A DNA stretch of 30,640 nucleotides from a virus (lineage: Duplodnaviria > Caudoviricetes): IMG/VR virus record IMGVR_UViG_3300032290_000817, positions 1 to 30,640 of that record. One strand, given 5' to 3'. A model generated the notes under the pieces. The model was given only the letters and a program-made list of their open reading frames with translations. It made no database searches and was not told the DNA's origin. Position 1 is the stretch's first letter. Every line of letters begins with the position of its first letter. Positions 1-27,690 of the stretch are shown one piece after another. Position numbers and translations under genes: made by a program.

Positions 1-2273
1 CCGCGAGGCCCCTCAGGCCCCTTGTGCAGCACCTGGGCGGCCTGATCGAACATGTTCATGGCGTCCTGCGTGTCGCGCCTCTGGCCGCCTCGTGTGGCAT
101 AGGCGTCGATGCGCTGCGCCTGGGCGCCGGAGAAAAGACCCCACACGGTTAGGGCGCTGAAGTCGTTCTCGGCCTTGATCGTGTAGGCGGTATCGAGCGA
201 GGCGACGACATACTCCATGGGCGGGAACACGCTAGCCTCATAGAGGCGCCACCACTCTCGCTTGATGACGCCACCACCACGCGGCGTCGGCTCCTGCTGG
301 AACTGGCCGGCTGTGGCGTATGGCCCCATGACCTTCTTGTCGCGGGCGACCACCTCGGCAGGGAATCGCTCAGGGAACAGTAGCTCGCCGGCCTCCGTGC
401 GTGGATCTATGAACCCCAATTTGGTCGGGAACGCACGAGCGGGATCGAACTCCATCGGCAGCATGAGATGATCGTATCCAAGCCGCTTATCCAAAATGAC
501 GCCGCTCACGTCTTCCTCGTGCAGACGCTGCATGATGACGACGATGGAGGACCGGATAGGATCATTGAGACGGGTCGGGATAGCTTCAAGGAAATTGTTG
601 ACTTCAGCTTGCCTTTGAGTTTCGGAGGCGGCGGAGTCAACGGAATGTGGATCGTCACAGTTGGATACTAAAACTCCTTTACCGCTCCCCACAAAGAAGC
701 TATGGTTGTCTTCCACTGAGAGACAGAAGGTGTCTTCGGCATGACCGACTTCACGGACGAAAACTGGAAACCTATCCCCGGTTTCGAGGGTCTTTACAGC
801 GTAAGCGATTTTGGCCGCATCAGGAGCGAAGGGAGAATTGTTCCTCGAATTGGCCGGGGGACGCTCACCATTGCTAGTAAAATTATAAAAACTCCTCCAA
901 CCAAAGGATACCCTCGATTCAACGCCAGCATCAATAGTATACCTCAACAAATTTTTGTCCACCAAGCTGTTCTGCTTGCCTTTGTTGGCAAACCTGAACC
1001 TGGACAAGAAGTTAGACACAAAAATGGAGACAGAAGCGATGCAAGACTTTGCAACCTCGAATACGGCACAAGGGCTGAAAACATTGCCGACGCCAAAAAG
1101 CATGGCACTTTCCCCCTTCATGAAAAGAGGCCGGGGGCAAAAATAACCAGAAACACCGCCAAAATCATCGCAGAAAGCGAAGCGTCCGCCGATGAACTGG
1201 CCGCTAAATTTGGCGTTAAAAGAGGCACCATTCAACAAATTAGAAGGGGAGAAACTTGGGCTGAGTTTACTCAAAACATTAGAAAGGAAGATTACTACCT
1301 CAGAGGCGAAAAATCCTCCAGTTCCGTCCTTACATCCAATGATGCTGTTATTATTAGCCAATCCAAAGAACCTCAAAGGGTTTTGGCGCGAAAGTATGGA
1401 GTAACTCCCAGAGCTATCTGGTCCATTAAAAACGGACATTCCTGGAAGCATGTGACTGGAATTAAGAAGAGATGCAGCGATCCATCCTGAATTAGTCCAT
1501 ACCTTATGGTCTGGCGTGCATTTAAAAACAGAACCATCAGACAGTCCGACTTCAACAATCGGGCTGCCTGGGTTCTTTTTCCACGAATATATGTTTTTTA
1601 ATTCAGCCTTATTACTTCCTGGCTTTGACGACCAAACTCGAATATTCTTTTTCTCATTTACAATTTCCCCAATTTTCATTGGGCCATTTTCTGTGTGAAC
1701 AATTTCATCATGCGGAAAACAAATAACCCTATCACCCCTGATACCTGTCAGGCTAGTGATCGCCGTAGCAATACGGAAGCCGCCAACGCTATTGACAAAA
1801 TTCAGCTTTTCATTCTGATCCTTGGCCAGCTTGACAAGATCGCCCCATCGGGCCTGATACCACTCAGACGTGATCAACTGTCGCATACGCCTGCTATCGC
1901 GAGCCGACAGATTCTCGACCTTGTGCGCCGCGCACACATAGCGCAAGTGCGGCATGTTGCATGGCCCCCACTCCCAAGCAGGCCAGAACACATTGGTGAT
2001 AAGAGACTTCATTGTGCCCGGAGGAACGTTCACAAGCAGGCGATTGTATAGCGTTCCGTCAGCTAATTCATGACCATCAGTAATAGCCTCAAGATGCTCG
2101 CAAATAGCGTCAATATGCCAACCATGCGTGTATGGCTGGCCGGGCTCAACTATGGACCAAGCCATGCGAATGAACGCAACAAGGCTCTCTGCTGCCTCCG
2201 CCTTATCTAGATCAATCAGAACTTTGTCAGCGTCAAGAACAAGCCCGCCAACACGAACAAGCGTTGCGCTCAC
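1..2273 (-). CDS. terL: Terminase large subunit precursor containing an intein; 3' end runs off the window
   Basis: Manual translation gives an uninterrupted frame from GTG at 2273 (GTGA overlap with the terS stop) to the window edge. Motifs: Walker A-like RLLVNVPPGTMKS, Walker B GDRVI/CDDPH (split by the intein), IVVIMQRLHEEDV, AGQFQQEP, and nuclease motif VASLDTAY...NDFSALTVWG. Probably absent from the ORF track because its stop codon lies outside the window. Confidence 0.95.
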   Translation of the reverse strand, partial: MSATLVRVGGLVLDADKVLIDLDKAEAAESLVAFIRMAWSIVEPGQPYTHGWHIDAICEHLEAITDGHELADGTLYNRLLVNVPPGTMKSLITNVFWPAWEWGPCNMPHLRYVCAAHKVENLSARDSRRMRQLITSEWYQARWGDLVKLAKDQNEKLNFVNSVGGFRIATAITSLTGIRGDRVICFPHDEIVHTENGPMKIGEIVNEKKNIRVWSSKPGSNKAELKNIYSWKKNPGSPIVEVGLSDGSVFKCTPDHKVWTNSGWIAASLLNSSHMLPGMSVFNGPDSSGSYSILSRQNPLRFFGLANNNSIIGCKDGTGGFFASEVVIFLSNVLSKLSPSFSPSNLLNGASFNAKFSGQFIGGRFAFCDDFGGVSGYFCPRPLFMKGESAMLFGVGNVFSPCAVFEVAKSCIASVSIFVSNFLSRFRFANKGKQNSLVDKNLLRYTIDAGVESRVSFGWRSFYNFTSNGERPPANSRNNSPFAPDAAKIAYAVKTLETGDRFPVFVREVGHAEDTFCLSVEDNHSFFVGSGKGVLVSNCDDPHSVDSAASETQRQAEVNNFLEAIPTRLNDPIRSSIVVIMQRLHEEDVSGVILDKRLGYDHLMLPMEFDPARAFPTKLGFIDPRTEAGELLFPERFPAEVVARDKKVMGPYATAGQFQQEPTPRGGGVIKREWWRLYEASVFPPMEYVVASLDTAYTIKAENDFSALTVWGLFSGAQAQRIDAYATRGGQRRDTQDAMNMFDQAAQVLHKGPEGPR
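678..706 (+). promoter_or_regulatory. Candidate sigma70-type promoter for the antisense HNH gene
   Basis: TTTACC (678-683), 17 bp spacer, TATGGT (701-706). Each hexamer matches consensus at 4/6, and the -10 ends about 35 nt upstream of ATG 741. Confidence 0.4.
741..1490 (+). CDS. NUMOD4-HNH homing endonuclease with two C-terminal HTH-like repeats, encoded antisense inside the intein
   Basis: NUMOD4 motif ENWKPIPGFEGLYSVSDFGRIRS; HNH_3-type VHQAVLLAF...VRHKNGDRSDARLCNLEYGTRAEN; two repeats LAAKFGVKRGTIQQIRRGETW and LARKYGVTPRAIWSIKNGHSW; SD-like GAAGGT at 726-731. Confidence 0.92.
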   Translation: MTDFTDENWKPIPGFEGLYSVSDFGRIRSEGRIVPRIGRGTLTIASKIIKTPPTKGYPRFNASINSIPQQIFVHQAVLLAFVGKPEPGQEVRHKNGDRSDARLCNLEYGTRAENIADAKKHGTFPLHEKRPGAKITRNTAKIIAESEASADELAAKFGVKRGTIQQIRRGETWAEFTQNIRKEDYYLRGEKSSSSVLTSNDAVIISQSKEPQRVLARKYGVTPRAIWSIKNGHSWKHVTGIKKRCSDPS

Positions 2274-2737
2274 TTCTTCGCCTTAGCCGCGACCATCACA
2301 GCACGCAATGCGTCACGCTGCTCAGGCGTAAGATCGCCAACGTCAATCGTCGTCGCCTCTACCCTAATCGGCCCGCCATCAGGTCCAGACAATTCCTGCT
2401 TCTGAGAATCAATCCAACCAGATGCGGAGCGACTACGATTCCGCAAACCCAAACTAATAATCTGAGAGTTTCCAGGTGAACCGCCAGCAGTGTTCAGTGC
2501 CCTTTCTTCCCACCACGCAAGCGCTTTGATGCGCCCTTCGTGAGTAGCCTGCGAGAATTCAGGGTGCTTTGCCTGCCAATCATACAAGCACCTAATAGGA
2601 ATATCCAACTTAGCAGACGCGGCTTCAAGAGAATAACCCTGAGCCATCACCTCAACAATCTTTTCGCAATATTCTGGCCTGTAATTAGAAGGACGACCAC
2701 GCTTACTTTTGGCCTCTAATTCCTTACCTTCTGCCAT
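2270..2737 (-). CDS. terS: Terminase small subunit
   Basis: GRPSNYRPEYCEKIV...YDWQAKHPEF HTH-type N-terminus and QELSGPDGGPI tail; directly upstream of and overlapping terL. ATG 2737 is preferred over GTG 2800, which lies upstream of a terminator hairpin. Confidence 0.9.
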   Translation of the reverse strand: MAEGKELEAKSKRGRPSNYRPEYCEKIVEVMAQGYSLEAASAKLDIPIRCLYDWQAKHPEFSQATHEGRIKALAWWEERALNTAGGSPGNSQIISLGLRNRSRSASGWIDSQKQELSGPDGGPIRVEATTIDVGDLTPEQRDALRAVMVAAKAKK

Positions 2738-2750
2738 AATTTTCTCACAT

Positions 2751-2787
2751 AAAAAAAGGGCACCAGACGACAATTCGTCAGGCGCCC
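2751..2787 (-). terminator. Intrinsic terminator just upstream of terS
   Basis: Minus strand reads GGGCGCCTGACGA-attg-TCGTCTGGTGCCC followed by seven T residues. Confidence 0.7.
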
Positions 2788-2813
2788 TCAATATAGACAC
2801 GAAAAGCGATCAA

Positions 2814-3092
2814 TCAATCGTTTTCTTCATCATGACCATTTTCCATAACCACCTCGCAGACAACGCTGTGAGTCTCAATCGAGCATTTTAGAATTTTGAC
2901 GCGCTCCATGTGCGCCGAGTAGCCGGCGCGGAAGCCAATGGAAAACTCGTCCTTCTCGTATCCGTCCCCACCGGCACGGTGCCGGAGGCTGCCAGCGGAC
3001 CCACGGAAGACAGCCCCCAAGGTTGTCTCCTCACGGGCTGCCGCGAGACCATTTTGGAAACCCTGCTTGAGGTTAACGACATCGTTCTTCAT
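2814..3092 (-). CDS. Hypothetical protein (92 aa)
   Basis: ORF packed 2 nt behind the upstream gene in a run of co-oriented small genes. Confidence 0.6.
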   Translation of the reverse strand: MKNDVVNLKQGFQNGLAAAREETTLGAVFRGSAGSLRHRAGGDGYEKDEFSIGFRAGYSAHMERVKILKCSIETHSVVCEVVMENGHDEEND

Positions 3093-3094
3093 GA

Positions 3095-3295
3095 CTACAG
3101 GCCCATTTCAAAGGTTGCGGAGGGGGTAGTTTCGGCTTCCTGGCGCAGAGCGCGCAGGGCAGCGATATCGTCACGGAGCCACGTGCGCAGGATGGCGCGC
3201 CACGCGACGTCACGCTCATTGATCCAGTCGCGGACCTGGGAGGCTAAGTCGGCTTCGGCCTGGGCGAGGATGGTCAGGATGGACTGCTGGGCCAT
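3095..3295 (-). CDS. Hypothetical protein (66 aa, MAQQSILT...)
   Basis: ATG 3295 sits 1 nt after the stop of the upstream gene; helical, amphipathic sequence. Confidence 0.6.
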   Translation of the reverse strand: MAQQSILTILAQAEADLASQVRDWINERDVAWRAILRTWLRDDIAALRALRQEAETTPSATFEMGL

Positions 3296-3296
3296 G

Positions 3297-3692
3297 TCAG
3301 GCGGCCAAGTCGATGGCGGTGCCGGTGGCGTCGTCCAGGGCAACGCGGGCGGCGCCGAGGGTGATGTGCGCCTCGCGAAGCTGGGCGCGGCGCCGGTTCA
3401 GCATGCCAAATTCGATGGAGCGGAGGCGGCGGCGGGCCTCCGGGGTGCGGGCGCGGTTGGCGTCGCCAATGGCGCGGCGCTGGAAGGCCACCAGACGCTC
3501 AAACTCGCGAATTTTGGCTTCTGCGTTTAGCACCGCGCGACGAGCAATTTCGGCAGCGTCAGGGGTGTAGGGCTGCACCGCCACATGCAGCGGCTGGCCG
3601 ATCATGTGAGCCACGTCGGCCAGGATGGCGTCAGTCAGACGGCCATCGGTGAAGCGCTCAGCGGCAGCGAGAACAGCGAGGTTACGGATCAT
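3297..3692 (-). CDS. Hypothetical protein (131 aa)
   Basis: Good RBS (AGGAGA), preceded by a promoter-hairpin cassette; GC-rich codon usage. Confidence 0.7.
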   Translation of the reverse strand: MIRNLAVLAAAERFTDGRLTDAILADVAHMIGQPLHVAVQPYTPDAAEIARRAVLNAEAKIREFERLVAFQRRAIGDANRARTPEARRRLRSIEFGMLNRRRAQLREAHITLGAARVALDDATGTAIDLAA

Positions 3693-3813: not shown

Positions 3814-4386
3814 TCATGGGGCATTTTTTAATTTCAAATAAAATCTAGCTTTAGACACGCGAGGAATTTTTGTAATAACTGCATCAATAGGAACATGTGA
3901 CCTCCGGCTATACCGAACTCCTGTTCGAGCATCTGCATAATCAAATCTAGGAGTTTTTCTCCCTTCATCAGTTTTCCCATCTGATGTCCAATTAGCAGCA
4001 CGATAAATAATACCACTATGGCCAACCGACGGATCAGCATAAGAAACTAAAGCATGAACATTAGAACAATTTTTTCTAATATAACGAACAGCTTGCGATA
4101 TTAAATAAGATTCGGCATTTTTGGGGACATCATCGCTTATCCATAGCCTCGCCAATTCCCAAGTCAGCCCACCATATCTTACGGCAGTTTCTCTCGGAGG
4201 AAGCGCAAAAACAATTGTGCCTAGCAGTTTTCTTTCGCGCTTCAGACCTAAAACCAAAGTGCAAACACCGGGCCATTTACCAAGATAATGAGACTTGATG
4301 AATTTATCAACCTCATGTCGAAAAACAGGCTCTACAAAACAAGACAGTCTCCATTCACGATCAAATATAGGTCCGGTAGGCTTCAT
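3814..4386 (-). CDS. Mom-family (GNAT-like) DNA adenine modification protein
   Basis: Motifs HYL, WELARLWISDDVPKNAESYLIS and LVSYADPSVGHSGIIYRAANW are typical of Mu Mom-like proteins. The gene is visibly AT-rich relative to its neighbours. Confidence 0.8.
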   Translation of the reverse strand: MKPTGPIFDREWRLSCFVEPVFRHEVDKFIKSHYLGKWPGVCTLVLGLKRERKLLGTIVFALPPRETAVRYGGLTWELARLWISDDVPKNAESYLISQAVRYIRKNCSNVHALVSYADPSVGHSGIIYRAANWTSDGKTDEGRKTPRFDYADARTGVRYSRRSHVPIDAVITKIPRVSKARFYLKLKNAP

Positions 4387-4521
4387 CAAACGCGCTCCAT
4401 CTCATTTTTTGGTAAAGGCGCCACGAAAACCCGCGACCCCTCCCACGAAACCTCCCACGAAAATATAATTTCGTGGGAAATGCGCCGAGTGCCTATCACC
4501 ACGGCGCATCCCCTTTTTGAG

Positions 4522-5789: not shown

Positions 5790-8075
5790 TCAGTAGAGTC
5801 CCGCGAGGCTCTTGCCGGCTTCGGCATACGTGACTTTGTGGCGGCGCTCATCGAGGCCATCGACACAAACAATTGCACCTTGATCCACCCAAACCTTGAT
5901 AATCTGATCGACTTTTGCGACGGCAACCTTATCAACTCCACCTCTCAAATCAACCCCCAAGATGGTCGAAACATAATTCCCAACCCAATTTTTAGACCGC
6001 TTATCCATACGAAGGTTCGACGTATTTGGAGTGCCGTCTGAGTTTCGTGCCTGACTTGCGAGGTGGCGCAAGACAACTGAAACATGATCCCCGGTCACTC
6101 CGTCCATCGCATTTGGCCACTCCCATTTGGTGACAACACCAACGCTGTCGCCAAATTCTCCGTCTACTCCATTCTCCAAATACACGGATTCCATCTTATA
6201 CCAATCCGCCTTATCAGACGGTAGAGCAAGATTATTCTTGCCATTATTAACCCTGAAATACCTATATCGAGTGTCGACGCCAGCCTTCTCTTGCTCACTC
6301 TCAGACATGCGATTCAGCACCCAAGCGGTGCGAACAGCATCACGAAGCGCAATAGCGCCGCGTCCATCTTCAACCGAAATCTCGGTCTCTGACGTTTTCC
6401 GGGCGTGATGCACGACGTTGATGGCGCATCCCGTCTCGGCTGCGATGCGGACAAAAGTCTTAGCCACACGGTCGATGGCGTTGTTATCGTTCTCGGTAAC
6501 ACGGTGGCTGGAGACGAAGGGGTCGACCACCCAGTAGTCAATTTTGTTGTCTTTGATCGCCTGCACGCAGGCTTCCACGACTGGCGCATATATGGCTGTG
6601 CCATCTCGCGTCTGCTCTGCGATGGTGATGAGAGCGTCTCTCCCATTGTTCACGAAGAGATATCCATCGAGGTCTGATTTTTTCAGACCGTAGAATTTGG
6701 CAGCAGACTGGATACGGCGTTGCAGTTCTTCCATCGGGTCTTCACCATTATAGAGCCACACGCGCAGCTTGCCGGGTGGCTGGATGCCGAGGAGGGGCTT
6801 GCCTGACGCCATGGCCAGGGCTTCCGCAATCATCAGTGCCGACTTCCCCAGGCCACCTGGGGCGATGGTCATCGAGAGCATGGTGCGGAGGTATTTGTAG
6901 CCGTAGAGCCATTTGCGGGGCGTGATTTGGGTAGGGTCGATCCACTCATATTTGGGGGCATAGACCATGCCTCCTGATGCTGGCGCGGCACTGGCGTCCC
7001 ACTCCTCAGTTGATCCTGATGATATTACGGGGCTTGATGCCGCTATGGGCTTGGCTGCCGGCTTCGCTAGGGGGTCAGTGGCTGATGAGTATGATACGGC
7101 ACTTGGCTGCGGCTTAGGGCGCTCTGGTGGCGCGATGAGGGCATGCCGGGCAACCTTCTCGTCCCACTGATCCATCGCTGCGCGCCATTTTGCCTTCAGC
7201 ATGGTGATGCCTCGCCCCTCACGCTCCAGCAAGGTCTCCTGCGGCGTGCCGGGCTCAACAAGGCGGGACTTCACTCGCAGCAGGTAGGTGCCCCAGGCGG
7301 CCATAAGATCGGCGTCACCGACTGGCTTGATGGGACAATCCCGGTATAAATTGACGACGGCTGCCCAGACGATCCGCGTCATCACGTCTTCGCGATTGTC
7401 GACTATGACGCCGAAGGCGTCTTTGGCCGTGTCTGGCGTGCCGGTGCGCTCTATCGGCCCCGTGTGGCTACCGCCACCGTATCGCTGGATGAGGTCGTCT
7501 ATGGCTTCCGTCAGCCACCCAGGAGCCTCCTGCACGTCCACTGCGCCCGGCGCCCGTCCTGGCGCCCAGGCGTAGCTGGTGCCGCTCTCGTGGGCGCTAG
7601 GCGGCAGCATGGCGAAGCCACCCTGCCCCCGGATGTCGATGCCTTTGGTTGTCTTGTTGGTAGGTGGCGTCCATCCCTCCGGCGCACGGAAGAACAACTG
7701 GACGCCGCCGCCGCCTGTAATCTGCTTAGGCGTAGCCGGCTCGATCCCATGGCAGTAGGTCGACAGCATCTCCGACCACCACTCGCGGGCAGAGTCCGAC
7801 TTGTAGAGGTCGAGGTCGATGACGAAGACGCCGCTCGAGCAAGACCCGGTAAGGAGACCCATGTTGGTCCGGTCACGCCACTGGCCGTGCGGTCCATACA
7901 TGCCGTCGAAAGCTTCGGCATCGACAAGTTGGTCTTGCAAGTTGCGCCATGGGATGGCTGGCCGCTTCCACTGCTTACCCGGCTCCGGCCGCAGCGCGGG
8001 CACAACCTGCCAACCGGCGGAACGATACAGGCGCGCGTAATCGCTAGGACCGAAGAAATCCATATCAACTGTCAT
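5790..8075 (-). CDS. Bifunctional primase-polymerase (Prim-Pol) fused to an AAA_25/RepA-like helicase
   Basis: Prim-Pol motifs NMGLLTG, VFVIDLD, TGGGGVQLFF, IDIRGQGGFAMLPPSAH. Helicase motifs APGGLGKS (Walker A), YNGED, WVVDP, VVHHARK, GRGAIAL. Start at ATG 8075 avoids overlap with ruvC. Confidence 0.92.
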   Translation of the reverse strand: MTVDMDFFGPSDYARLYRSAGWQVVPALRPEPGKQWKRPAIPWRNLQDQLVDAEAFDGMYGPHGQWRDRTNMGLLTGSCSSGVFVIDLDLYKSDSAREWWSEMLSTYCHGIEPATPKQITGGGGVQLFFRAPEGWTPPTNKTTKGIDIRGQGGFAMLPPSAHESGTSYAWAPGRAPGAVDVQEAPGWLTEAIDDLIQRYGGGSHTGPIERTGTPDTAKDAFGVIVDNREDVMTRIVWAAVVNLYRDCPIKPVGDADLMAAWGTYLLRVKSRLVEPGTPQETLLEREGRGITMLKAKWRAAMDQWDEKVARHALIAPPERPKPQPSAVSYSSATDPLAKPAAKPIAASSPVISSGSTEEWDASAAPASGGMVYAPKYEWIDPTQITPRKWLYGYKYLRTMLSMTIAPGGLGKSALMIAEALAMASGKPLLGIQPPGKLRVWLYNGEDPMEELQRRIQSAAKFYGLKKSDLDGYLFVNNGRDALITIAEQTRDGTAIYAPVVEACVQAIKDNKIDYWVVDPFVSSHRVTENDNNAIDRVAKTFVRIAAETGCAINVVHHARKTSETEISVEDGRGAIALRDAVRTAWVLNRMSESEQEKAGVDTRYRYFRVNNGKNNLALPSDKADWYKMESVYLENGVDGEFGDSVGVVTKWEWPNAMDGVTGDHVSVVLRHLASQARNSDGTPNTSNLRMDKRSKNWVGNYVSTILGVDLRGGVDKVAVAKVDQIIKVWVDQGAIVCVDGLDERRHKVTYAEAGKSLAGLY

Positions 8076-8118
8076 GTATTTTCTTTCGCGGGGAGTTACG
8101 CCGCCGTAGGCGTCATCA

Positions 8119-8652
8119 TCAATCGCGCCGGTCCAGCACAGTCGCGCCATACCATGCCATGAGGGCGGCGTCGGCGCGCCCGTCATGCTTCTTCAGCTTG
8201 AAGAGGCTGGCGTAGGCAGGGAATAACTCCATCGCCCTGGCACGGGCGCCGTCCTTGCCGTCGCGCACCTGACAGGCTGATTGCCAGAGCTTGGGCGGGA
8301 CGATGGTGACGGGGTAGCAGTAGGCTGCCAGGACACCTTCAACGATGCCGACTGACCGGCCGAAGGAGAACATGGACGTGACGCCCTGGCCGGGCATGGC
8401 GCCGACCCGCTCCATGATGACTTTCGGGATAGGCTGGAGGTGCTGGAAATCCGATAGCTGATTGGCCATCATGATTGGCGACAGTTCATGCTTGGTTTTG
8501 CCGTTGCGCGTGATTTCCAGCGTCGGCATGTCGAAGATATCGAGGCGCCCTGCGCGCGGGCGAAAGACGGCAATGGCTCCTGACTTTCCGGGGTCGATAC
8601 CGATAAATGCTTGATTTGATGCAGTTATTTGACCGTTCACGGGTATTCTCAT
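8119..8652 (-). CDS. ruvC: RuvC-like Holliday junction resolvase
   Basis: FIGIDPGKSGAIA, IMERV, QGVTSMFSFG, DGRADAALMA. Confidence 0.88.
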   Translation of the reverse strand: MRIPVNGQITASNQAFIGIDPGKSGAIAVFRPRAGRLDIFDMPTLEITRNGKTKHELSPIMMANQLSDFQHLQPIPKVIMERVGAMPGQGVTSMFSFGRSVGIVEGVLAAYCYPVTIVPPKLWQSACQVRDGKDGARARAMELFPAYASLFKLKKHDGRADAALMAWYGATVLDRRD

Positions 8653-9008: not shown

Positions 9009-9090
9009 GCCCACATGGCGGAATGGTAGACGCAACGGACTTAAAATTCGTCGCATATGCATGCCGGTTCGAGTCCGGCTGTGGGCACCA
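9009..9090 (+). tRNA. trnL: tRNA-Leu (anticodon UAA) with encoded CCA
   Basis: Acceptor stem GCCCACA/TGTGGGC + A-CCA; D arm GCGGAATGGTAGACGC; anticodon arm ACGGA-CTTAAAA-TTCGT; extended variable region; T arm GCCGG-TTCGAGT-CCGGC. Confidence 0.95.
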
Positions 9091-11005: not shown

Positions 11006-11075
11006 TTGCAAAGTCCGGCTGGTGCTGTATGTAGGTGTCACGGGATTAGCCCGATAAATCGTATGGAGATAGCAC
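11006..11075 (+). promoter_or_regulatory. Early-type promoter/leader cassette for the helicase gene
   Basis: TTGCAA-16-TATGTAGGTG, CGGG-atta-g-CCCG hairpin, GGAGA RBS. Confidence 0.55.
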
Positions 11076-12578
11076 ATGACCTTCACCCCCTCGCCGCAGC
11101 AAGCAGACTTCCTGAACTGGGTGTCTAACGGGTCTGGTTCGTGCGTGCTGGAGGCCGTTGCGGGCGCCGGCAAGACCACCACCCTGCTGGAAGCAGTCGA
11201 CCGCACTGGTGGCGGCGTGGCCATCCTGGCCTACAACAAGATGATTGCGGAGGAGATTAAGGGGAAGCTGCTGAAGCGTGGCGTCGACTGGAAGACGGCC
11301 GAAGCCGGCACCGTCCACAGCTTCGGCTTCCGCGCCTATCGCAAGGCCTTCCCCAAGGTCCAGGTTGAGGGTGGCAAGACGTTTGCTGTCCTGGATCAGA
11401 TGTTCAAGGGCGCACCTGCGCACCACATCAGCCGCACGCATGGCGCCGGCATTGCCAACCTCGTCTCCCTGGCCAAGCAGCGCGCCATTGGCGTGACCGG
11501 CTCCATCGACAACCGCAAGCTGTGGAGCGACATTGTCGACCACTTTGGCCTGTTTGGCGATGATGGCGATGATATGATTGAAGACCTCATCGAGGTCGCC
11601 ATTGCGGCACTGAAGACGTCGAACCTCACCACTGACGTGATCGACTTTGACGACATGGTCTACCTGCCGCTCGTTCATAAGGTGCGCTTCTGGCGCTACA
11701 AGTGGGTTTTCGTTGACGAGGCGCAGGACACCAACCCCGCCCGTCGCGCCCTCGTGAAGGCCATCCTGGCGCCGTCTGGGCGGGTGGTGGCGGTGGGTGA
11801 CCGCGCCCAAGCCATCTACGGCTTCACGGGCGCCGACGCCGACAGCCTTGACCTGATTGCCGACGAGTTCAACGCCATTCGCATGCCGCTGACCACCACC
11901 TACCGCTGCCCCAAGGCGGTTGTCAGCTTTGCCCAGCGTTGGGTCTCGCACATCACGGCGGCTGACACTGCGCCTGAGGGCGAGGTTCTGAGCATCGAGG
12001 CGCGCGAGTTCTTTGAGCGTCAGGATTTGGGGCGTGGGTCTGCCGTCCTGTGCCGCAACACGGCTCCGATCATTAGCCTCGCCTTTCAGCTTATCCGCCA
12101 GGGCATTGGCTGCCGCGTCGAGGGTCGCGACATTGGTCAGGGGCTCATCAAGCTGGCTACGAAGTGGAAGACCGTGAAGACCCTTGCCGGTCTGGAGAGC
12201 GCGCTGGAGAAATGGGCAGACAGGCAGATTGCCCGCGCTCAGGCGAAGAACGCGGCTGCCGTGGCCCAGACCATTGCCGATCAGCGTGAGACGCTTCAGG
12301 TGGTCATCGACCGCTGCCGCGAGCAGAAGCGGGACGGCATCGACCATGTCGTGGATGCCATCAAGGGCATCTTTGAGGACAACGTCACGGGTATGCTGGT
12401 CCTCTCGACCATCCACAAGTCCAAGGGTCGCGAGTGGGATACCGTGTTCTGGCTGGATCGTGACGGCACTTTGCCGAGCAAGTATGCTCGCCAGAAGTGG
12501 CAGCTTCAGCAAGAGGACAACCTCTGCTACGTTGCAGCCACACGCGCTAAGCAATGCCTCATTGAGGTTGTAATTTAG
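11076..12578 (+). CDS. UvrD/Rep-family SF1 DNA helicase
   Basis: AVAGAGKTTT, LAYN, TVHS, VFVDEAQD, AVGDRAQAIYGFTGAD, TYRCP, LCRNTA, STIHKSKGREW, YVAATRAK. Confidence 0.95.
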   Translation: MTFTPSPQQADFLNWVSNGSGSCVLEAVAGAGKTTTLLEAVDRTGGGVAILAYNKMIAEEIKGKLLKRGVDWKTAEAGTVHSFGFRAYRKAFPKVQVEGGKTFAVLDQMFKGAPAHHISRTHGAGIANLVSLAKQRAIGVTGSIDNRKLWSDIVDHFGLFGDDGDDMIEDLIEVAIAALKTSNLTTDVIDFDDMVYLPLVHKVRFWRYKWVFVDEAQDTNPARRALVKAILAPSGRVVAVGDRAQAIYGFTGADADSLDLIADEFNAIRMPLTTTYRCPKAVVSFAQRWVSHITAADTAPEGEVLSIEAREFFERQDLGRGSAVLCRNTAPIISLAFQLIRQGIGCRVEGRDIGQGLIKLATKWKTVKTLAGLESALEKWADRQIARAQAKNAAAVAQTIADQRETLQVVIDRCREQKRDGIDHVVDAIKGIFEDNVTGMLVLSTIHKSKGREWDTVFWLDRDGTLPSKYARQKWQLQQEDNLCYVAATRAKQCLIEVVI

Positions 12579-12586
12579 GAGATGTG

Positions 12587-12754
12587 ATGAAGGACGGAAA
12601 AGAATGGGGCTACTGGCTGGGCGATCAATGGATCGTCCTGCCACGCCTACCTCTAATTAGGGCAGGTTTTTTGGAACCACCCTTTGATGTTGAAAGGCCA
12701 GACGGTAAAATTCTTCACGTCATCGCCAGAAATGTAGTTGACAAGCCTACCTAG
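12587..12754 (+). CDS. Small hypothetical protein (55 aa, MKDGKEWGYWLG...)
   Basis: AGGAG RBS right after the helicase stop; below the ORF-track size cutoff. Confidence 0.5.
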   Translation: MKDGKEWGYWLGDQWIVLPRLPLIRAGFLEPPFDVERPDGKILHVIARNVVDKPT

Positions 12755-12850: not shown

Positions 12851-12858
12851 GGGAATTG

Positions 12859-13620
12859 ATGGAGAATATATTGGATAACCCGTTTCAGCGATTTGGTATC
12901 GCTCACCTGTCTCCATCGACGGCAAATCTTTTTGCAAAGGCGCCCGCGTCTTTTGTGATGACGAAGATTTTTGGCTTTCGTGGTCAGGTTGGCGTTGCCG
13001 CGTTTCGTGGGACGGCTGTTGAGTCTGGCATTGCCCACGGGCTCGTGAATGGCGCAGAAGTGTCCGAATGCGTCGACCTCGCCAGGAAGGAATTTGCTCG
13101 CCTCAGTGCTTTCTCGACCGATCCTAAGAAGGAGACTGAGCAGGGCAACATCGCCGACATGGTCAAGATTGGTCTATACGAGTTGCTGCCTTATGGGCGG
13201 CCGACTTCGACCCAGGGTGCCGTTCGTGTGGATGTTGATGGGCTGTCTGTTCCCATTATTGGATACTATGACTTCATGTGGGCAGATCACGGCATCATCG
13301 TTGACTTGAAGACAAGCTCTCGCCTGACTAGCAAGGTGGAATCCGCGCATGCCCGTCAGGTGTCGTTGTATTCTCGTGCGATGAACACCAAAGATGCTCG
13401 CATTTGCTACGTGACGCCGAAGAAAAGTGCCGTCTACACGGTTGAAAACCTTGACGGTCACTTCAATTCTCTTGTGCAAATCTCTTTGGCGATGCAGAGT
13501 TTCCTGTCAAAGGCGCAAACAAAGGAGGATGTTGCATCCATGATTGCGCCTGATATTGACAGCTTCTACTACAACGATCCCCTTCAGCGCCAACGCGCTT
13601 TTGAGATTTGGGGGATTTAG
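12859..13620 (+). CDS. PD-(D/E)XK (RecB/Cas4-like) exonuclease
   Basis: HLSPS, RGTAVE, IIGYYD, IVDLKTS, QVSLY; adjacent to a putative SSB. Confidence 0.85.
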   Translation: MENILDNPFQRFGIAHLSPSTANLFAKAPASFVMTKIFGFRGQVGVAAFRGTAVESGIAHGLVNGAEVSECVDLARKEFARLSAFSTDPKKETEQGNIADMVKIGLYELLPYGRPTSTQGAVRVDVDGLSVPIIGYYDFMWADHGIIVDLKTSSRLTSKVESAHARQVSLYSRAMNTKDARICYVTPKKSAVYTVENLDGHFNSLVQISLAMQSFLSKAQTKEDVASMIAPDIDSFYYNDPLQRQRAFEIWGI

Positions 13621-15703: not shown

Positions 15704-16056
15704 GCGCGCCACCGCCAGTCGGAGTGATTGCCCTGGCTCTGATGGGGCGCACGACCGTCATGCAAGAGCGTGTTTCGCCGCTGGCTTTGCGGCAAGCAGA
15801 CGCCATCCTCTCCGCCCTCGCCGCTGCTGGCCACGTCATCGAGCAGGACTGGCAGCCGATTGAGACGGCGCCGAAAGACGGGACACGGTTCATCGCTTGG
15901 TGGCAACCGTGCGCGCAGCTTCCCAATGGCGGCTGGCACGAATGCCAGTGGCTAGGCGGTGGCTGGTATCACCCGTTCTTCGCCGAGCCGACGCACTGGA
16001 AACCGCCGCCCGTTGATGGGCCTCATCTCACCGCAGCCAAGGAGACGCAGGCATGA
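15700..16056 (+). CDS. DUF551-like protein
   Basis: WQPIETAPKDGT...PTHWKPPP. Confidence 0.75.
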   Translation: MSAPPPVGVIALALMGRTTVMQERVSPLALRQADAILSALAAAGHVIEQDWQPIETAPKDGTRFIAWWQPCAQLPNGGWHECQWLGGGWYHPFFAEPTHWKPPPVDGPHLTAAKETQA

Positions 16057-16421
16057 GCGCGCTGTTGCCGTGCCCGTTTTGTGGTGGGCGCAATCCTGGG
16101 CTTTGGCATCAGGACGTAGGCGTGAAATCCTTTCCACGCGTCAACTGCGGTGCTTGCGGTTCTGGAACCGGGTTCAGCCCCAAGTGGTCAGACGACGACG
16201 CCATCGCCGCCTGGAACCAGCGCGCTACCCCCGCCGAGGTCGAAAAGCTGCGGGCGGATGTGGAGAGGTTGCGGAAGGCGTTGGAGCGGATTGCCAACCA
16301 CCCCGAGGCCAACGTGGTGCTGACAGACTACGGGCCAGACGGCAAGCAGCGAGTGTGGCCAACCGTAGAACAAGAAGCCCGCGCCGCCCTCACACACAAG
16401 GAGCCGGGCGATGAAGGTTGA
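16053..16421 (+). CDS. Lar-family (restriction alleviation-like) zinc-binding protein
   Basis: LLPCPFCGG...VNCGACG...AIAAWNQRA. Confidence 0.8.
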   Translation: MSALLPCPFCGGRNPGLWHQDVGVKSFPRVNCGACGSGTGFSPKWSDDDAIAAWNQRATPAEVEKLRADVERLRKALERIANHPEANVVLTDYGPDGKQRVWPTVEQEARAALTHKEPGDEG

Positions 16422-23400: not shown

Positions 23401-26400
23401 TCAGCCTCCCGACATAAAGTAGCGGCTTAGGCCTCTAATGCCTGTATTCCTGTATAGATATTCTTCAGCTTGCTGAGAAGAAGCATTGCCCTTCTTCATT
23501 AATTCAATTGCTTTTGCCCCTTTGGGATTCATCATAAGCATTTTAAATGCCTGCTGTTCCCTGTTGTATTTTTCCTGACCATTTGTAGAATCAAAGTCAG
23601 TGGCAGCATTATAGGCAGTTCCTTGCGGAGAATAAGATACGTATTGGTCAAGATGAGCATTTTTGTCAATTAAGCGCTGGTTGTGAACAAGCGCATGGGC
23701 AGATAGCTCAGCAGCGGCATCAGGAGGCATAGCAACGCCCGGCTGCGACCGCAAAGCCAACTCAAGTGCTTGCAGAGATCGCTGATCGGCTGCGCTAACA
23801 TTTTGACCAGCCATTGCGTTGTTCAATTTTGCAAGAATAGCAGCGTTTGTATCCGCTGTCCCAGCAATATCTCCGGCGCCAATCATTCTTCCAAATGTAT
23901 TAGCCATGTTTGCAATTTGGGCGCGTTCTGCCGCATATGCACCAGGAGTGCTAAGTGCGTTCCTGTCGCCAGACGTAATTGCGTTTGCAATTGTGCTTGC
24001 AGCTTCAAGGGTATTAAATCTGCCTGCCCTTGCCGCCTCGGCGCCGCTTCTTGTAGATTCCATATATCTACCGCTTTGCTTAATTTGATCTTCGTAATTT
24101 GCGCCCTGCAAATTTTCAGATTGAGCGGTAGCAGGATTAAAGGAAATTCCGCTGCTGACCGCAGGCTCGGAGGGAGCAATAGGCGCGTTTGCCGCGCTGG
24201 CACCTTCATATGGAGCGCCGGAAGGAATGCCTACGGTTTGAAGTCGTTCGCCAGCCGCCACGCGACGCCTGTATTCAGACATCTGCATGGGAACAGTGGC
24301 GCCAGTCTTGGGGTCGATGACAGCCACGACCGGGCCAAGGCCGGGAATGGGAGTGAAAGCAAGGCGAGCCGCGCCAACCTGCTGCATCCCGGTTTCGGCC
24401 TCCGCCTTGGCGCGCTGAGCCATCTGGTTCTGCACATTCCCGTAGGAGCCGGCAGCACCAGCAAGGCCCTGAAGAAAAGCCGAACCTGCGAAGCGGCTAG
24501 GCGACGCCGCCATGGTGCCGACGCCAGTCAGAAGAGGGACAAGCCAGTCCTGGTTGCGCGAGAACCAGCTTCCCTTAGACCCCTCATCCGCTTTTTCAGG
24601 GCGAGCCGCAGGCATGCCGCTCACTCCAGGCGCGGGCGGCTGCATGGCGCCCTGACCCGCCGGAGGAGCGGCAACGCCAGTTACGTCGACCGAAGCGCCT
24701 CCCGGCGTAAGCGGATGCGGACCAACCAACCGATCGCGACCAAGCTCTGGCGCTTGCCGGCGAGGAGAGGCGCCGCCGTCCGAAGAAGACGCAACAGAAG
24801 AAACGCCTCCCGGAGGAGGGGCAACATTTTCCGGAGGAGGCGGAATGCTAGAGCCAATAGGGTTCCCCATTGGGTCGACTTCAGGCATGGAAGGCGCAAC
24901 GCCCGCCCGCCCGCGATTAAGCAGAGCAAGCAATTCAGGGCTATACGAACTACGGTCGGGCGGCGTGTCTCTCAGCCCTTGTAACCCAGGAGGCAGTTGA
25001 GCGCCCCACATCGCCGAAGTGTTGCCTGTCCTGGGGTCGATAGAAGGCTCCAGCGTCATAGGAACACCCCCTCGCGGGAATGTTATCATGGGATTGTTAT
25101 TGTTGGCAATTCGCTGACTAGAAGGCAGCCGAGCTCTTTGTGCCTCTAATGTCATAGGAGCACCCCCTCGCGGGAATGTTATCATGGGATTATCATAATT
25201 GCTGTAATTATTTTGGATTTGCGGCTGATCCGTATCTATCCCCGGAAGAGATAAATTGCCGCGCTCAATATTTTGGGGATTTGGAGTGATGTTTCCTTGC
25301 CCAGCATTTTGATTTACAAAATCACCAAGAGAGCCAACTAGCGGCCCGCCGAAGTTTGCTCCACCAAGATTCCCGCGATAAACTTCTCCAACAGGCAATT
25401 CTCTTTGCCGCTGAGCCTCAGACCTATCATATTGACGCTGCCGCCACTCCGGACGAAGCAGCCGGTTGACATCGTCGCCTTCCTCGCCGGGCTGGCCGCC
25501 CGCTTGGTAGCCATGCCGAGGCGCAATTCCACCATAGGCAAAATGACCACGATGCGCGGCATCTTCGGTAGCACGCCCATAGTCAACGGTCTTGTAGTTA
25601 CCGGCAACACCAACGGCTTCAGGGTGCTTGCGCTCAACTTCCTGCGCAATCAAACCAATCTGCGTCTCGGGATGACCCTTGTAGTTGTATCGATAAACGG
25701 GCTGACCATCAAAAGTCTTGCCAATCTGATGGATGTTTTCCTTCAGGCGCTTGTCAGAAAAAAGAGATGCAAAGCCTGCTATAGAACTGCCAAGCTTAAT
25801 TATATCGCCACCAAGGCCACCGGACTGACCAGAACCAGCCGGTGCGGTCTTAAGAGCGGGGATATCTAGCTTTTCGTTTGGAACAAAAGAAGGAACGCCA
25901 TAAGGACTTGCATCATCCTCATTGTTCACGCGCCCATTTGTGGCGTAACCCCTGATTGCGCCGCCATGCGCTTTCTTAAAAATAGACTCGTAAAGTTCAG
26001 TGCCTGCATCAATAAGTGTTTTCCCGGCTTTAACATTTTCTGCAAAATGGCGATAATCATCTCCAGTGCTAGCCTGAGCCGGCGGAGGAGAGGCAACTGC
26101 CAAACGCCCAGGCGACATGCTGCCTTGCGGGATGTTGAGACCTTGCGTTTGACCGCCAAGACCAGCACCAATTGGCGTGCCATGAACCCTGTTTAAGATA
26201 TGAGTAAAATAATTATCAGACATAAAAGGCTTATCAACCATACCGCCGAAGGCAAAACCTTCGCCAGCACGCTCCGGCACAACGCCACCACCCATAGACG
26301 CGCCGCCATAGGCAAAGTGCCCACGATGCGCTGCATCCTCAGTGGCACGATCATAGTCTACAGTCTTGTAGCCGCCAGCAAGACCGACAGCTTCAGGATG

Positions 26401-27690
26401 CTTGCGCTCAACGTCCTGTGCAATCAAACCAATCTGAGTGCCGCGCTGCCCCTTGTAGTTGTAGCGGTAGATCGGCTGCCCATCGAAGGTCTCGCCAACC
26501 TGATGGACATTCTCCTTGAGGCGCTTGTCAGAAAAGAACGAGGTGGGCTGCGTCGTTGTCGTCGTAGAGCCCGAATTGGCGCCAGTCCCCATGGCAATGT
26601 TGGCAAGGAACTGCGCCGTCTGGAACGGGTAGCCCTGCTGCTGGAGGAACTGATTATAGAGGGCAGAGTTCTGCGCCTGCTGCGTCTGCTGTTCCTGCGT
26701 TCCGGCAGCCAACTGCGCCGAGGCACCCTGCAAGGCGGCGCCCTGTGCGCCAGTGCCAAGGGCGGCAAGGTTCTGAGCCGTCTTCTCGCCCATGCCATAG
26801 ATGCCCTGACCCAGCCCGGCAATCTGCTGGCCAGCCGTCAGGCCCTGCCCAAATTGCTGCTGCCCCAGGCCTGCAAGCTGACCGGCAGTGGCGGCGCCCT
26901 GGCCAAACTGCTGCTGGCCAATACCCATCATCTGGCCGGCGCCAGCCTGCAAGGCGGCGCGATTAGCCTGCTGAGCGCCAAGGCCAAACCCCTGCTGCTG
27001 CTGCGCCGTCCCCAGCGCCTGCCCGTAGCCGGTGTTGTAGAGGTTCGCGATGGTCTGCTGATTGGCAAGGTTCTGCTTATAGGCGAGGTTGGCCGCCGCG
27101 ACGCCCGCCCTATCCCCGCCAAAGGCGCCAGACCTGATGGCGTCGCTGGTAAGCTGCGACTGCTGCTCCTGGTTCTGCTGGTTCATCGCCTGCATGGTCG
27201 CGCCGACCACGTTGTTGAGGTATGGCGACATATACTGGTTGATTGCGCCCTGCCCCAGGTAGGTCGGGTTTACGGCCTGCGTGCCTGCCAGGGCAAGGCC
27301 AGTGGCGGCCTGATTGTAGGGCTGTGCGGCGGCTTGAGCGCCCTGTAGTGCCCCATACGACTCCTGGCCAAGCTGCGCCCCCAGGCCGTAGGCGCCGCCA
27401 TACACGTCCATCGCGGCGCCGTAGTAGGGGGTCGCGGCCTGCTGGCCTTGCAGGAGGGATTCGGTGGCGCCAGTGAAGTAGGGCTGGGCCTGCCCGGCGG
27501 CCTGATTGACGTTGGCAACCGCAGCGTTCTGCGTGCTGGTCATCGGCGCCACAAACTGCCCCTGGTAGGGCTGGTAGGGCGTCTGCGCAACATCGGAGGC
27601 ATACTTATTGACGGCGTTGTATCTCGCCATAACATCCGGCGGAATCTGAACGCTGGAGGTCGAAGTCGAGGTCTTGCCGCTGCCGCTCAT
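23401..27690 (-). CDS. Large internal virion/DNA-transfer protein with two internal peptidase S74 domains
   Basis: Gln/Ala/Gly-rich N-terminus (NQYMSPYLNNVV...GAFGGDR); SDKRLKEN...IGLIAQ.VE...PEAV...YKTVDY at residues 387 and 645. Confidence 0.82.
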   Translation of the reverse strand: MSGSGKTSTSTSSVQIPPDVMARYNAVNKYASDVAQTPYQPYQGQFVAPMTSTQNAAVANVNQAAGQAQPYFTGATESLLQGQQAATPYYGAAMDVYGGAYGLGAQLGQESYGALQGAQAAAQPYNQAATGLALAGTQAVNPTYLGQGAINQYMSPYLNNVVGATMQAMNQQNQEQQSQLTSDAIRSGAFGGDRAGVAAANLAYKQNLANQQTIANLYNTGYGQALGTAQQQQGFGLGAQQANRAALQAGAGQMMGIGQQQFGQGAATAGQLAGLGQQQFGQGLTAGQQIAGLGQGIYGMGEKTAQNLAALGTGAQGAALQGASAQLAAGTQEQQTQQAQNSALYNQFLQQQGYPFQTAQFLANIAMGTGANSGSTTTTTQPTSFFSDKRLKENVHQVGETFDGQPIYRYNYKGQRGTQIGLIAQDVERKHPEAVGLAGGYKTVDYDRATEDAAHRGHFAYGGASMGGGVVPERAGEGFAFGGMVDKPFMSDNYFTHILNRVHGTPIGAGLGGQTQGLNIPQGSMSPGRLAVASPPPAQASTGDDYRHFAENVKAGKTLIDAGTELYESIFKKAHGGAIRGYATNGRVNNEDDASPYGVPSFVPNEKLDIPALKTAPAGSGQSGGLGGDIIKLGSSIAGFASLFSDKRLKENIHQIGKTFDGQPVYRYNYKGHPETQIGLIAQEVERKHPEAVGVAGNYKTVDYGRATEDAAHRGHFAYGGIAPRHGYQAGGQPGEEGDDVNRLLRPEWRQRQYDRSEAQRQRELPVGEVYRGNLGGANFGGPLVGSLGDFVNQNAGQGNITPNPQNIERGNLSLPGIDTDQPQIQNNYSNYDNPMITFPRGGAPMTLEAQRARLPSSQRIANNNNPMITFPRGGVPMTLEPSIDPRTGNTSAMWGAQLPPGLQGLRDTPPDRSSYSPELLALLNRGRAGVAPSMPEVDPMGNPIGSSIPPPPENVAPPPGGVSSVASSSDGGASPRRQAPELGRDRLVGPHPLTPGGASVDVTGVAAPPAGQGAMQPPAPGVSGMPAARPEKADEGSKGSWFSRNQDWLVPLLTGVGTMAASPSRFAGSAFLQGLAGAAGSYGNVQNQMAQRAKAEAETGMQQVGAARLAFTPIPGLGPVVAVIDPKTGATVPMQMSEYRRRVAAGERLQTVGIPSGAPYEGASAANAPIAPSEPAVSSGISFNPATAQSENLQGANYEDQIKQSGRYMESTRSGAEAARAGRFNTLEAASTIANAITSGDRNALSTPGAYAAERAQIANMANTFGRMIGAGDIAGTADTNAAILAKLNNAMAGQNVSAADQRSLQALELALRSQPGVAMPPDAAAELSAHALVHNQRLIDKNAHLDQYVSYSPQGTAYNAATDFDSTNGQEKYNREQQAFKMLMMNPKGAKAIELMKKGNASSQQAEEYLYRNTGIRGLSRYFMSGG
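25055..25191 (-). repeat. 41-nt direct repeat (NPMITFPRGG[A/V]PM), 96 nt apart
   Basis: 25055-25095 and 25151-25191 differ at one base. Confidence 0.85.
25528..26532 (-). repeat. Direct duplication of a 231-nt S74 module (26302-26532 and 25528-25758)
   Basis: 77-aa units identical at 66/77 positions by manual alignment, 774 nt apart. Confidence 0.9.

Follow-up and report, generated by a model that had tools for sequence, protein, structure and literature searches.

We consider it very probable that the gene of the large terminase subunit (terL) in a Caudoviricetes phage harbors, in its Walker B strand, a class 1 intein whose opposite strand encodes an intact I-HmuI-like HNH gene, the latter being the likely homing nuclease of that intein. 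The phage is represented by a linear, partial record (IMG/VR virus record IMGVR_UViG_3300032290_000817, positions 1 to 30,640), and this whole stretch of 30,640 nucleotides (nt) is called the window hereafter. The element is real, selected and probably mobile, and represents a clean natural case in which 250 codons are read on both strands; its family gives direct sequence evidence of three kinds: namely, selection that acts on the strand of the nuclease, signals for expression within a splicing block, and a homing footprint.

A likely class 1 intein in the large terminase subunit

The terL precursor (3..2273, minus strand; TIGR01630) is open throughout, from 2273 to the window's left edge (757 amino acids, aa), and contains an insert of exactly 354 aa (660..1721, minus strand) with the junctions GDRVI/C...VSN/CDDPH, where the slashes mark the borders of the insert. 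Frame and junctions are thus as stated in a preliminary description of this DNA, which was made from the sequence alone. The complete terL product (P0003) has 916 aa and, after subtraction of the 354-aa intein, 562 aa, which equals the alleles with an empty site, L007-L009; L007 matches the terminase large subunit phrog_38 (E 6.5e-76). Upstream of terL lies the gene of the terminase small subunit, terS (2270..2800, minus strand; phrog_309, E 1.1e-21).

Two NCBIfam models matched the insert above their curated cut-offs, intein_Nterm with E 1.2e-10 and intein_Cterm with E 7.7e-4, and Pfam Intein_splicing (E 9.8e-8) matched it slightly below its gathering score. Among PDB sequences, inteins of DnaE and RecA match it best. 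In an AlphaFold model built on a 24-row alignment, a confident Hint fold was predicted from residues 1-98 (1428..1721, minus strand) and 315-354 (blocks F and G; 660..779, minus strand), with 99 residues at a per-residue confidence score (pLDDT) of at least 90 and a mean of 84-95 per 10-residue block over residues 1-90. Among the matches listed by Foldseek for this model, all were inteins or Hint domains, the best being 5I0A (E 4.7e-7). The insert has Cys1, the block B motif T69-x-x-H72 and the C-terminal Ser353-Asn354; C1, T69, H72, and N354 are invariant in 24/24 aligned inteins of the family.

By its insertion, its residues and its predicted fold, therefore, the insert is likely to be a class 1 intein, as the classes are defined in PMC2807308. 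The penultimate His, usual for inteins though not obligatory, is absent, Ser353 standing in its place, and so is the usual Asp at block F position 4; other members of class 1 are known to lack this His (PMC5050341). Block F position 4, which was assigned by eye in the window intein, is Cys333 (window 723-725), and Cys occupies it in 24/24 family members despite the presence of Cys1; class 1 inteins mostly have Asp here, and class 3 inteins have Cys (PMC2807308). Class 3 is defined by the lack of an N-terminal nucleophile and by the WCT triplet (B12 Trp, F4 Cys, G5 Thr). Assignment to it was rejected, as the insert starts with Cys1 and has Val74 at B12 and Val352 at G5, so that only the Cys at F4 fits.

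Between the two parts of the Hint domain, residues 99-314 (780..1427, minus strand) form a linker rich in Ser, Phe, Gly, and Asn that is predicted to be disordered (pLDDT below 50). It comprises 216 aa, somewhat shorter than the approximately 240 residues given in the preliminary description. No nuclease family was matched in the intein frame by profile searches, and the insert is hence not a canonical full intein. We propose that terL is translated through the insert and that the Hint domain (1-98 and 315-354) would then excise itself together with the disordered 216-aa loop by means of Cys1, Thr69/His72, Asn354, and the Cys at +1, as expected from the predicted fold.

An HNH endonuclease gene antisense to the intein

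The plus strand of the same region encodes a 249-aa endonuclease of NUMOD4-HNH-HTH-HTH type (741..1490; HTH, helix-turn-helix). NUMOD4 (E 2.2e-11) and HNH_3 (E 1.4e-10) were matched above the Pfam cut-offs, the HTH matches being weak, and I-HmuI (PDB 1U3E) was the sole PDB sequence match (E 2.8e-12) in a profile comparison. The profile searches of both frames, which had been suggested at the outset, thus place intein families on the minus strand and NUMOD4 and HNH_3 on the plus strand. An AlphaFold model of the HNH protein, made with five sequences, has a mean pLDDT of 52 and is too weak for a fold search.

The two genes share their codon boundaries: intein codon His327, when reverse-complemented, gives the ATG of the HNH gene, and Ser78 gives its TGA in the same way, so that intein codons 78-327 are double-coded. 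A complete 249-aa gene in the same register on the antisense strand, and a double-coded part reaching into the splicing domain, had both been noted in the preliminary description, and the predicted Hint fold indeed covers shared residues on either side. Namely, the splicing domain shares 21 codons with the nuclease on its N-terminal side, where residues 78-98 are the antisense of the C-terminal tail and stop codon of the HNH gene, and 13 on its C-terminal side, where HNH codons 1-13 lie antisense to residues 315-327 and the strand 319-327 belongs to the predicted Hint fold. An in-frame HNH domain is impossible, since the ends of the HNH gene overlap blocks F and A/B on the opposite strand.

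Occurrence of the two-strand layout

The layout is real and is shared by a widespread phage family. In three further studies, both junctions are crossed by single contigs, in which 10/1288, 66/1786, and 11/1176 letters differ. A protein search gave 26 matches among 4030 candidates: namely, the query, 17 further terminases that share its intein and linker at 31-56% identity, one mini-intein, and 7 proteins of other hosts that match the splicing domain only. For members available as protein only, we infer the antisense gene from homology of the linker. DNA was in hand for 18 loci with the whole intein, the window among them; the antisense HNH open reading frame (ORF) is intact in 17 of these 18, with both frames open, and L131 has one internal stop. 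The statistics below rest on 14 distinct alleles, near-duplicates (L108, L135, L141 and the broken L131) having been left out. Empty sites, a mini-intein and further antisense-HNH inteins, for which a search of related terL alleles had been proposed, were all found.

One member of the family is present in Escherichia phage BUCT618 (L126; OM735461.1), for which GenBank annotates terL only; the antisense ORF of 223 aa at this locus (2723-3391, minus strand) is unannotated and scores as NUMOD4 and HNH_3. This isolated Escherichia coli phage, together with the 96.5%-identical empty alleles, provides material for direct tests.

An assembly inversion, or an HNH frame lying open on the other strand by chance, can practically be dismissed as the source of the layout. 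A single gene of this kind has a chance of about 3% of leaving the antisense register open in the window genome (approximately 0.03 for the terL frame opposite the window HNH gene alone, given the codon use of the window), but the junction-spanning contigs of three other studies and the recurrence of the layout in 17 other loci and a GenBank phage genome stand against this account, and an inversion is refuted by those contigs and relatives.

Single-sequence searches of viral contigs returned only 6 distant N-terminal matches for the intein and none for the HNH protein, and the DNA of the relatives was recovered by alignment and motif searches. Some candidates were discarded on translation: none of 9 matches from a motif scan of genome contigs was in the terL frame, and 10/19 from a scan of metagenomes were likewise not terL.

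The mini-intein (P0017) has 141 aa, occupies the same terL site and keeps a matching DRLPVYITNLGD stretch, which is the strand antisense to NUMOD4. It nests inside the antisense-HNH family in the intein tree, with modest branch support (SH-aLRT values of 83-86), and is therefore more likely to be a deletion product than a precursor. The antisense-HNH state is ancestral in a large family, and the invasion was neither local nor recent. The preliminary description had a free-standing HNH gene invade a mini-intein in reverse orientation. The same model of origin has been published for other inteins (see below); as a local or recent event it is not borne out, the sole mini-intein being nested within the family.

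Several variations were observed among the relatives. The insertion point slides along the Walker B strand in L126 and L131-L141 (N/CDD, N/CVDD, N/CLVDD, and N/CIIIDD, CLVLDD or CLIIDD), so that the intein family is shifted by 1-3 codons relative to DD, and +1 is always Cys. The HNH protein of L134/L135 has an insertion of about 30 aa rich in Lys, Arg, and Pro, which is rich in Gly, Leu, and Pro in the intein, and both frames stay open. In L109 (1-354) and protein P0020, the same terL site holds part of an intein whose block F differs and which likewise shows an antisense NUMOD4 start. In P0004, P0010, P0015, and P0019, a second intein-like insertion was found elsewhere, either in the Walker A region or in the C-terminal nuclease part; that of P0004 has LAGLIDADG-like motifs, and the linkers of P0010 and P0019 resemble alternative-frame text.

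Selection on the two strands

Both frames are kept by selection, and the amino-acid constraint of the linker sits in the HNH frame. The ratio of nonsynonymous to synonymous polymorphism (pN/pS) was calculated from five gap-free alleles of 354 codons that are close to saturation at synonymous sites; for the linker, it is 0.38 when the HNH frame is read and 1.14 when the intein frame is read. In the parts used for splicing only, it is 0.39 and 0.24 in the intein frame and 0.98 and 1.23 in the antisense frame. The most variable codon position changes accordingly: it is the third in the splicing-only parts, but in the linker it is the first, which corresponds to the third position of the HNH codons. 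Two closer pairs of alleles gave ratios of nonsynonymous to synonymous substitution (dN/dS) of 0.16 and 0.08 for the linker in the HNH frame, the intein frame giving 1.28 and 3.22. The purifying selection expected of a genuine HNH gene is thus present, and the linker is shaped by selection on the other strand.

The cost of the overlap is small. In the shared register, stops in the terL frame arise only from the HNH codons TTA, CTA, and TCA, and all of these have synonyms, so the overlap is cheap. The openness of the terL frame is enforced all the same: among the Leu and Ser codons of the HNH gene in the 14 alleles, the three codons were found 0 times in 452, against 74 expected from the extein codon usage of each locus. 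As a control, 16/17 loci that were found by the HNH search and lie outside such inteins have at least two antisense stops; the one exception is a weak match of 20 residues, and some rows of this control are near-duplicates. Both frames are thus under selection, that of terL acting only to bar TTA, CTA, and TCA from the HNH gene.

These data also bear on whether the insert is removed at the RNA level as a group I intron, or whether the linker is a functional domain in the terL frame, both of which we regard as very improbable. A search of the window with Rfam at gathering scores gave no intron, purifying selection acts on the Hint blocks and their frame is kept open, and the linker is predicted to be disordered and is unconstrained in the terL frame.

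Candidate expression signals inside block F

Expression of the HNH gene as a separate protein, as proposed in the preliminary description, is the likely design, to judge from signals that are conserved upstream of it. A Shine-Dalgarno-like GAAGGTG (726..732, plus strand) lies 8 nt before the HNH ATG and is the antisense of the block F codons Thr(ACC)-Phe; a weak sigma70-like promoter, TTTACC-17-TATGGT (678..706, plus strand; score 8/12), is the antisense of block F/G codons. The HNH start is located 24-27 codons from the end of the intein in 14/14 alleles.

Conservation of the signals was compared with 2000 synonymous recodings; the positions were picked post hoc from alignments, and the counts overstate independence because the alleles are related. 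AGG is found upstream of the HNH start in 14/14 alleles against a mean of 4.8, and none of the 2000 recodings reaches 14. It derives from an xCC codon of block F (ACC in 11 alleles and TCC in 2), the 14th allele having AAGAGGTG in another register. A -10-like box (TATGAT, TATGGT or TATTAT) occurs in 13/14 alleles against a mean of 7.5, with 2/2000 recodings reaching 13, although this test is inflated by an extein codon use that is mostly GC-richer than that of the intein. Both boxes together are present in 9/14 alleles (mean 3.6; 1/2000 recodings).

Besides these limits of the recoding test, several observations weigh against a dedicated promoter: the -35 box alone is not significant (164/2000 recodings), L126 is without a -10 box at the corresponding position, and the copy in the window scores 8/12 and was therefore missed by a generic scan requiring 9/12, which found 2 sites against 1.4 expected and none on the plus strand. 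The nuclease might then be made from a longer antisense read-through transcript starting in or beyond the C-extein, the -10 and Shine-Dalgarno-like sequences being by-products of block F; this would affect only the way in which the HNH gene is expressed. The amino acids of block F force several bases of both signals, and the -35 box is weak in several alleles. Where synonymous positions are free, nonetheless, they take the base that gives the signal: the key A of the -10-like box is supplied by His CAT in 12/12 His alleles, the xCC codon is used in 13/14, and AGG is retained in L138 and L139 despite a change of Thr to Ser. Furthermore, near-consensus copies of the promoter exist, with a perfect TTGACA-17-TATGAT in L140 and TTGACT-17-TATGAT in L138 and L139. 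We thus think read-through rather unlikely and favor transcription of the HNH gene from the weak sigma70-like promoter and its translation from the Shine-Dalgarno-like site, both of which would be the antisense of block F/G codons. Conservation of these signals is observed, and expression from them is likely; its timing may be early, and the nuclease might thereby be uncoupled from late terL expression, as supposed in the preliminary description.

Other searches around the gene added little. Terminator-like sites number 5 against 1.5 expected, the three on the plus strand being 963-978, 1559-1571, and 1668-1683. The 5' region of the HNH gene folds no better than shuffled sequences (z 0.24), and no translation-blocking hairpin is claimed. 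As for contigs covering positions 1-2800, those of two true RNA runs cover extein pieces only, and those of two doubtful runs, which are probably DNA, cover part of the intein; the contigs of these four runs carry no strand and are thus uninformative on transcription either way.

Empty alleles and a footprint of homing

When terL relatives were fetched with the N-extein, 79/80 were empty at the intein site. The empty alleles L007-L009 are 96.5-96.8% identical to the window extein, and the window groups with empty L007/L009 at an SH-aLRT of 100 in an extein tree of 80 rows, in which intein alleles are scattered among empty ones. Empty and filled alleles also co-occur in the same samples: in X3, a contig joins position 590 to 1731, as in an empty allele, and loose ends at 1722 in X2 were read as an empty site.

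Around the insertion point, the window differs from its empty relatives in a one-sided tract comprising 0 to +120 nt in the C-extein (539..659, minus strand) and -13 to -1 in the N-extein (1722..1734, minus strand). In this tract, 36/134 nt differ from L007, compared with 89/1075 elsewhere (Fisher p 5e-9; 0/2000 scan permutations), and 38/134 differ from L009. The tract is closest to that of the intein-bearing L096 (75.8%, compared with 74.2% for L007), and L096 is the sister of the window in the intein tree. Within the tract lies the +1 Cys codon (TGT; 657..659, minus strand), which is Ile in 79/79 empty alleles examined. A divergent tract that brings in the +1 Cys points to recent homing, and the tract and the change from Ile to Cys fit homing with mostly downstream co-conversion importing the Cys. 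I-HmuI cuts one strand (PMC2761285), and homing that is initiated by a nick and leaves co-inherited flanks is known for I-HmuI and MobE (PMC2790892). We suppose, by analogy, that the free nuclease would nick the intein-free terL of a co-infecting phage, and that repair from the intein-bearing copy would move the intein with a mostly downstream flank, the Walker B Ile being replaced with the Cys required for splicing; the direction of co-conversion and the position of the nick are provisional.

The HNH protein resembles I-HmuI in its NUMOD4 and HNH_3 core, in keeping the positions of H75, N87, and N96, and in having a C-terminal helical DNA-binding region; I-HmuI, in contrast, is encoded in a group I intron and has 174 aa, whereas the window protein is encoded antisense inside an intein and has 249 aa with two predicted HTH repeats. 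H93, N105, N114, and D117 of the HNH protein are invariant in 14/14 alleles. At D74 and N83 of I-HmuI, which we take to be active-site positions, the window protein has Arg92 and Ala101 instead; the former is Arg in 12/14 alleles and Cys in 2, and the latter is Ala in the clade of the window and Asn in 7/14 alleles.

These two substitutions count against an active homing nuclease, as does the internal stop in the HNH gene of L131, which indicates that decay happens; the extein tree, moreover, is a quick version only. It could be that the intein splices while the HNH protein is inactive here or acts on another target, and that the intein spreads by ordinary recombination or in trans, the HNH gene being kept for a job at the level of the phage such as the exclusion of competing phages. 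The weak promoter of the window allele and the mini-intein P0017 would suit this account as well. It is difficult to reconcile, however, with a dN/dS of 0.08-0.16 in the HNH frame of close pairs, with four invariant residues in the region of the active site, and with the divergent, one-sided tract beside the insertion together with a patchy distribution among near-identical exteins. We hence judge it unlikely and keep to the HNH protein as the probable homing nuclease of the intein.

Comparison with known systems

The layout itself has already been published for other types of nuclease, and its antisense HNH version was not found in the literature searched. Namely, Gosselin, Arsenault, and Gogarten (10.1101/2025.01.02.630785) described non-canonical inteins with anti-sense LAGLIDADG or VSR-like homing endonucleases, and their preprint attributes earlier anti-sense cases, Synechocystis DnaX and a Chloroflexus SpoVR-like protein, to Gorbalenya 1998 and Gogarten 2002. 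The supposition in the preliminary description that no such arrangement had been described does not hold, therefore, and prior documentation was among the outcomes that it had named as refuting. In those inteins, as in the window, a contiguous in-frame intein is accompanied by a nuclease that has its own ORF on the other strand; many of those inteins interrupt terminase large subunits, their spread is patchy, and a free-standing nuclease invading an intein is proposed as the origin. Antisense-nuclease inteins are described as rare, and the preprint leaves open, with an argument from phylogeny only, whether the nuclease is a product or a pseudogene.

The window family differs from them in several respects. 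Its nuclease, having NUMOD4 and HNH_3, belongs to neither the LAGLIDADG nor the VSR-like antisense type, and HNH is listed in the preprint only in frame. Secondary ORFs typically stay clear of the splicing domain there, whereas the window HNH gene truly overlaps it. The main text of the preprint has no mention of a promoter, ribosome or expression, in contrast to the conserved signals in block F of the window family, and the hosts of this family are not limited to actinophages. A full-text literature search, with most subscription papers outside its reach, gave no paper on an antisense HNH gene inside an intein and none mentioning BUCT618.

Other systems share single features. The ShiLan element in actinophage methylases likewise has a hidden HNH gene in another frame, an open host frame and signs of homing (PMC11855218), but it is on the same strand, in the third frame and with no splicing domain, unlike the antisense gene with a full Hint domain in the window; the same source mentions the idea that co-conversion lets such elements import a +1 residue suited to splicing. 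Fractured genes with split inteins are alike in having a free-standing nuclease gene in the intein, short coding overlaps with the C-intein and one terminase locus, and unlike in having three coding regions on one strand, a split intein and GIY-YIG or Vsr-like nucleases (PMC2677866). Inteins of mycobacteriophage TerL interrupt the same host protein and splice in a reporter, including TerL1-e, which is also in Walker B (PMC5050341). TerL1-e, however, is grouped with class 3, and endonuclease activity was detected in lysates with expressed TerL1-b and TerL1-c, whereas the window intein is assigned to class 1 and does not encode a nuclease in frame.

A broader proposal is held here with somewhat less than even confidence. 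The window would belong to an undescribed, widespread two-strand intein family in which the gene of a nicking nuclease is inseparable from the splicing domain: its first codons would build a strand of the Hint fold, and its promoter and ribosome site would be synonymous positions of the catalytic block F. Host RNA polymerase could then make the nuclease early, independently of late terL and of splicing, and one-sided co-conversion would import a Cys into a Walker B strand devoid of a nucleophile. Terminase Walker B might then be a hotspot in which out-of-frame HNH inteins had two or more origins, one with an antisense NUMOD4-HNH and one with a zinc-ribbon HNH in the +1 frame. In practical terms, annotation that allows one gene per stretch misses such genes, and inteins called 'decayed' may hence be active.

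The second, unrelated double-coded intein was noticed at the same terL Walker B site (N/CDDPH) in L088 (996-2096, minus strand), L091-L094, L104, L107, and L112 (840-2003, plus strand). It contains a Cys-rich, zinc-ribbon-like HNH protein that is encoded on the same strand, in the +1 frame, with 323-343 codons free of stops; in L088 and L112, Pfam HNH was matched above its cut-off. The preprint by Gosselin et al. has four types, none of which is this one.

Other genes of the window

Four long ORFs antisense to real genes have no Pfam match (11046-12644, minus strand; 7464-8162, 23770-24984, and 26200-27348, plus strand) and are probably shadow frames. A Mom-family protein (3814-4389, minus strand; Pfam E 1.2e-29) is likely to be a DNA-modifying product directed against restriction. 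By Pfam, the window furthermore encodes a Prim-Pol/AAA_25 primase-helicase (5790-8186, minus strand), a UvrD helicase (11076-12578, plus strand), a PD-(D/E)XK nuclease (12856-13620, plus strand), a Lar restriction-alleviation protein (16053-16421, plus strand), and a tail protein of 1429 aa with two Peptidase_S74 stretches (23401-27690, minus strand). One tRNA gene is located at 9009-9087 on the plus strand (Rfam, 60.4 bits).

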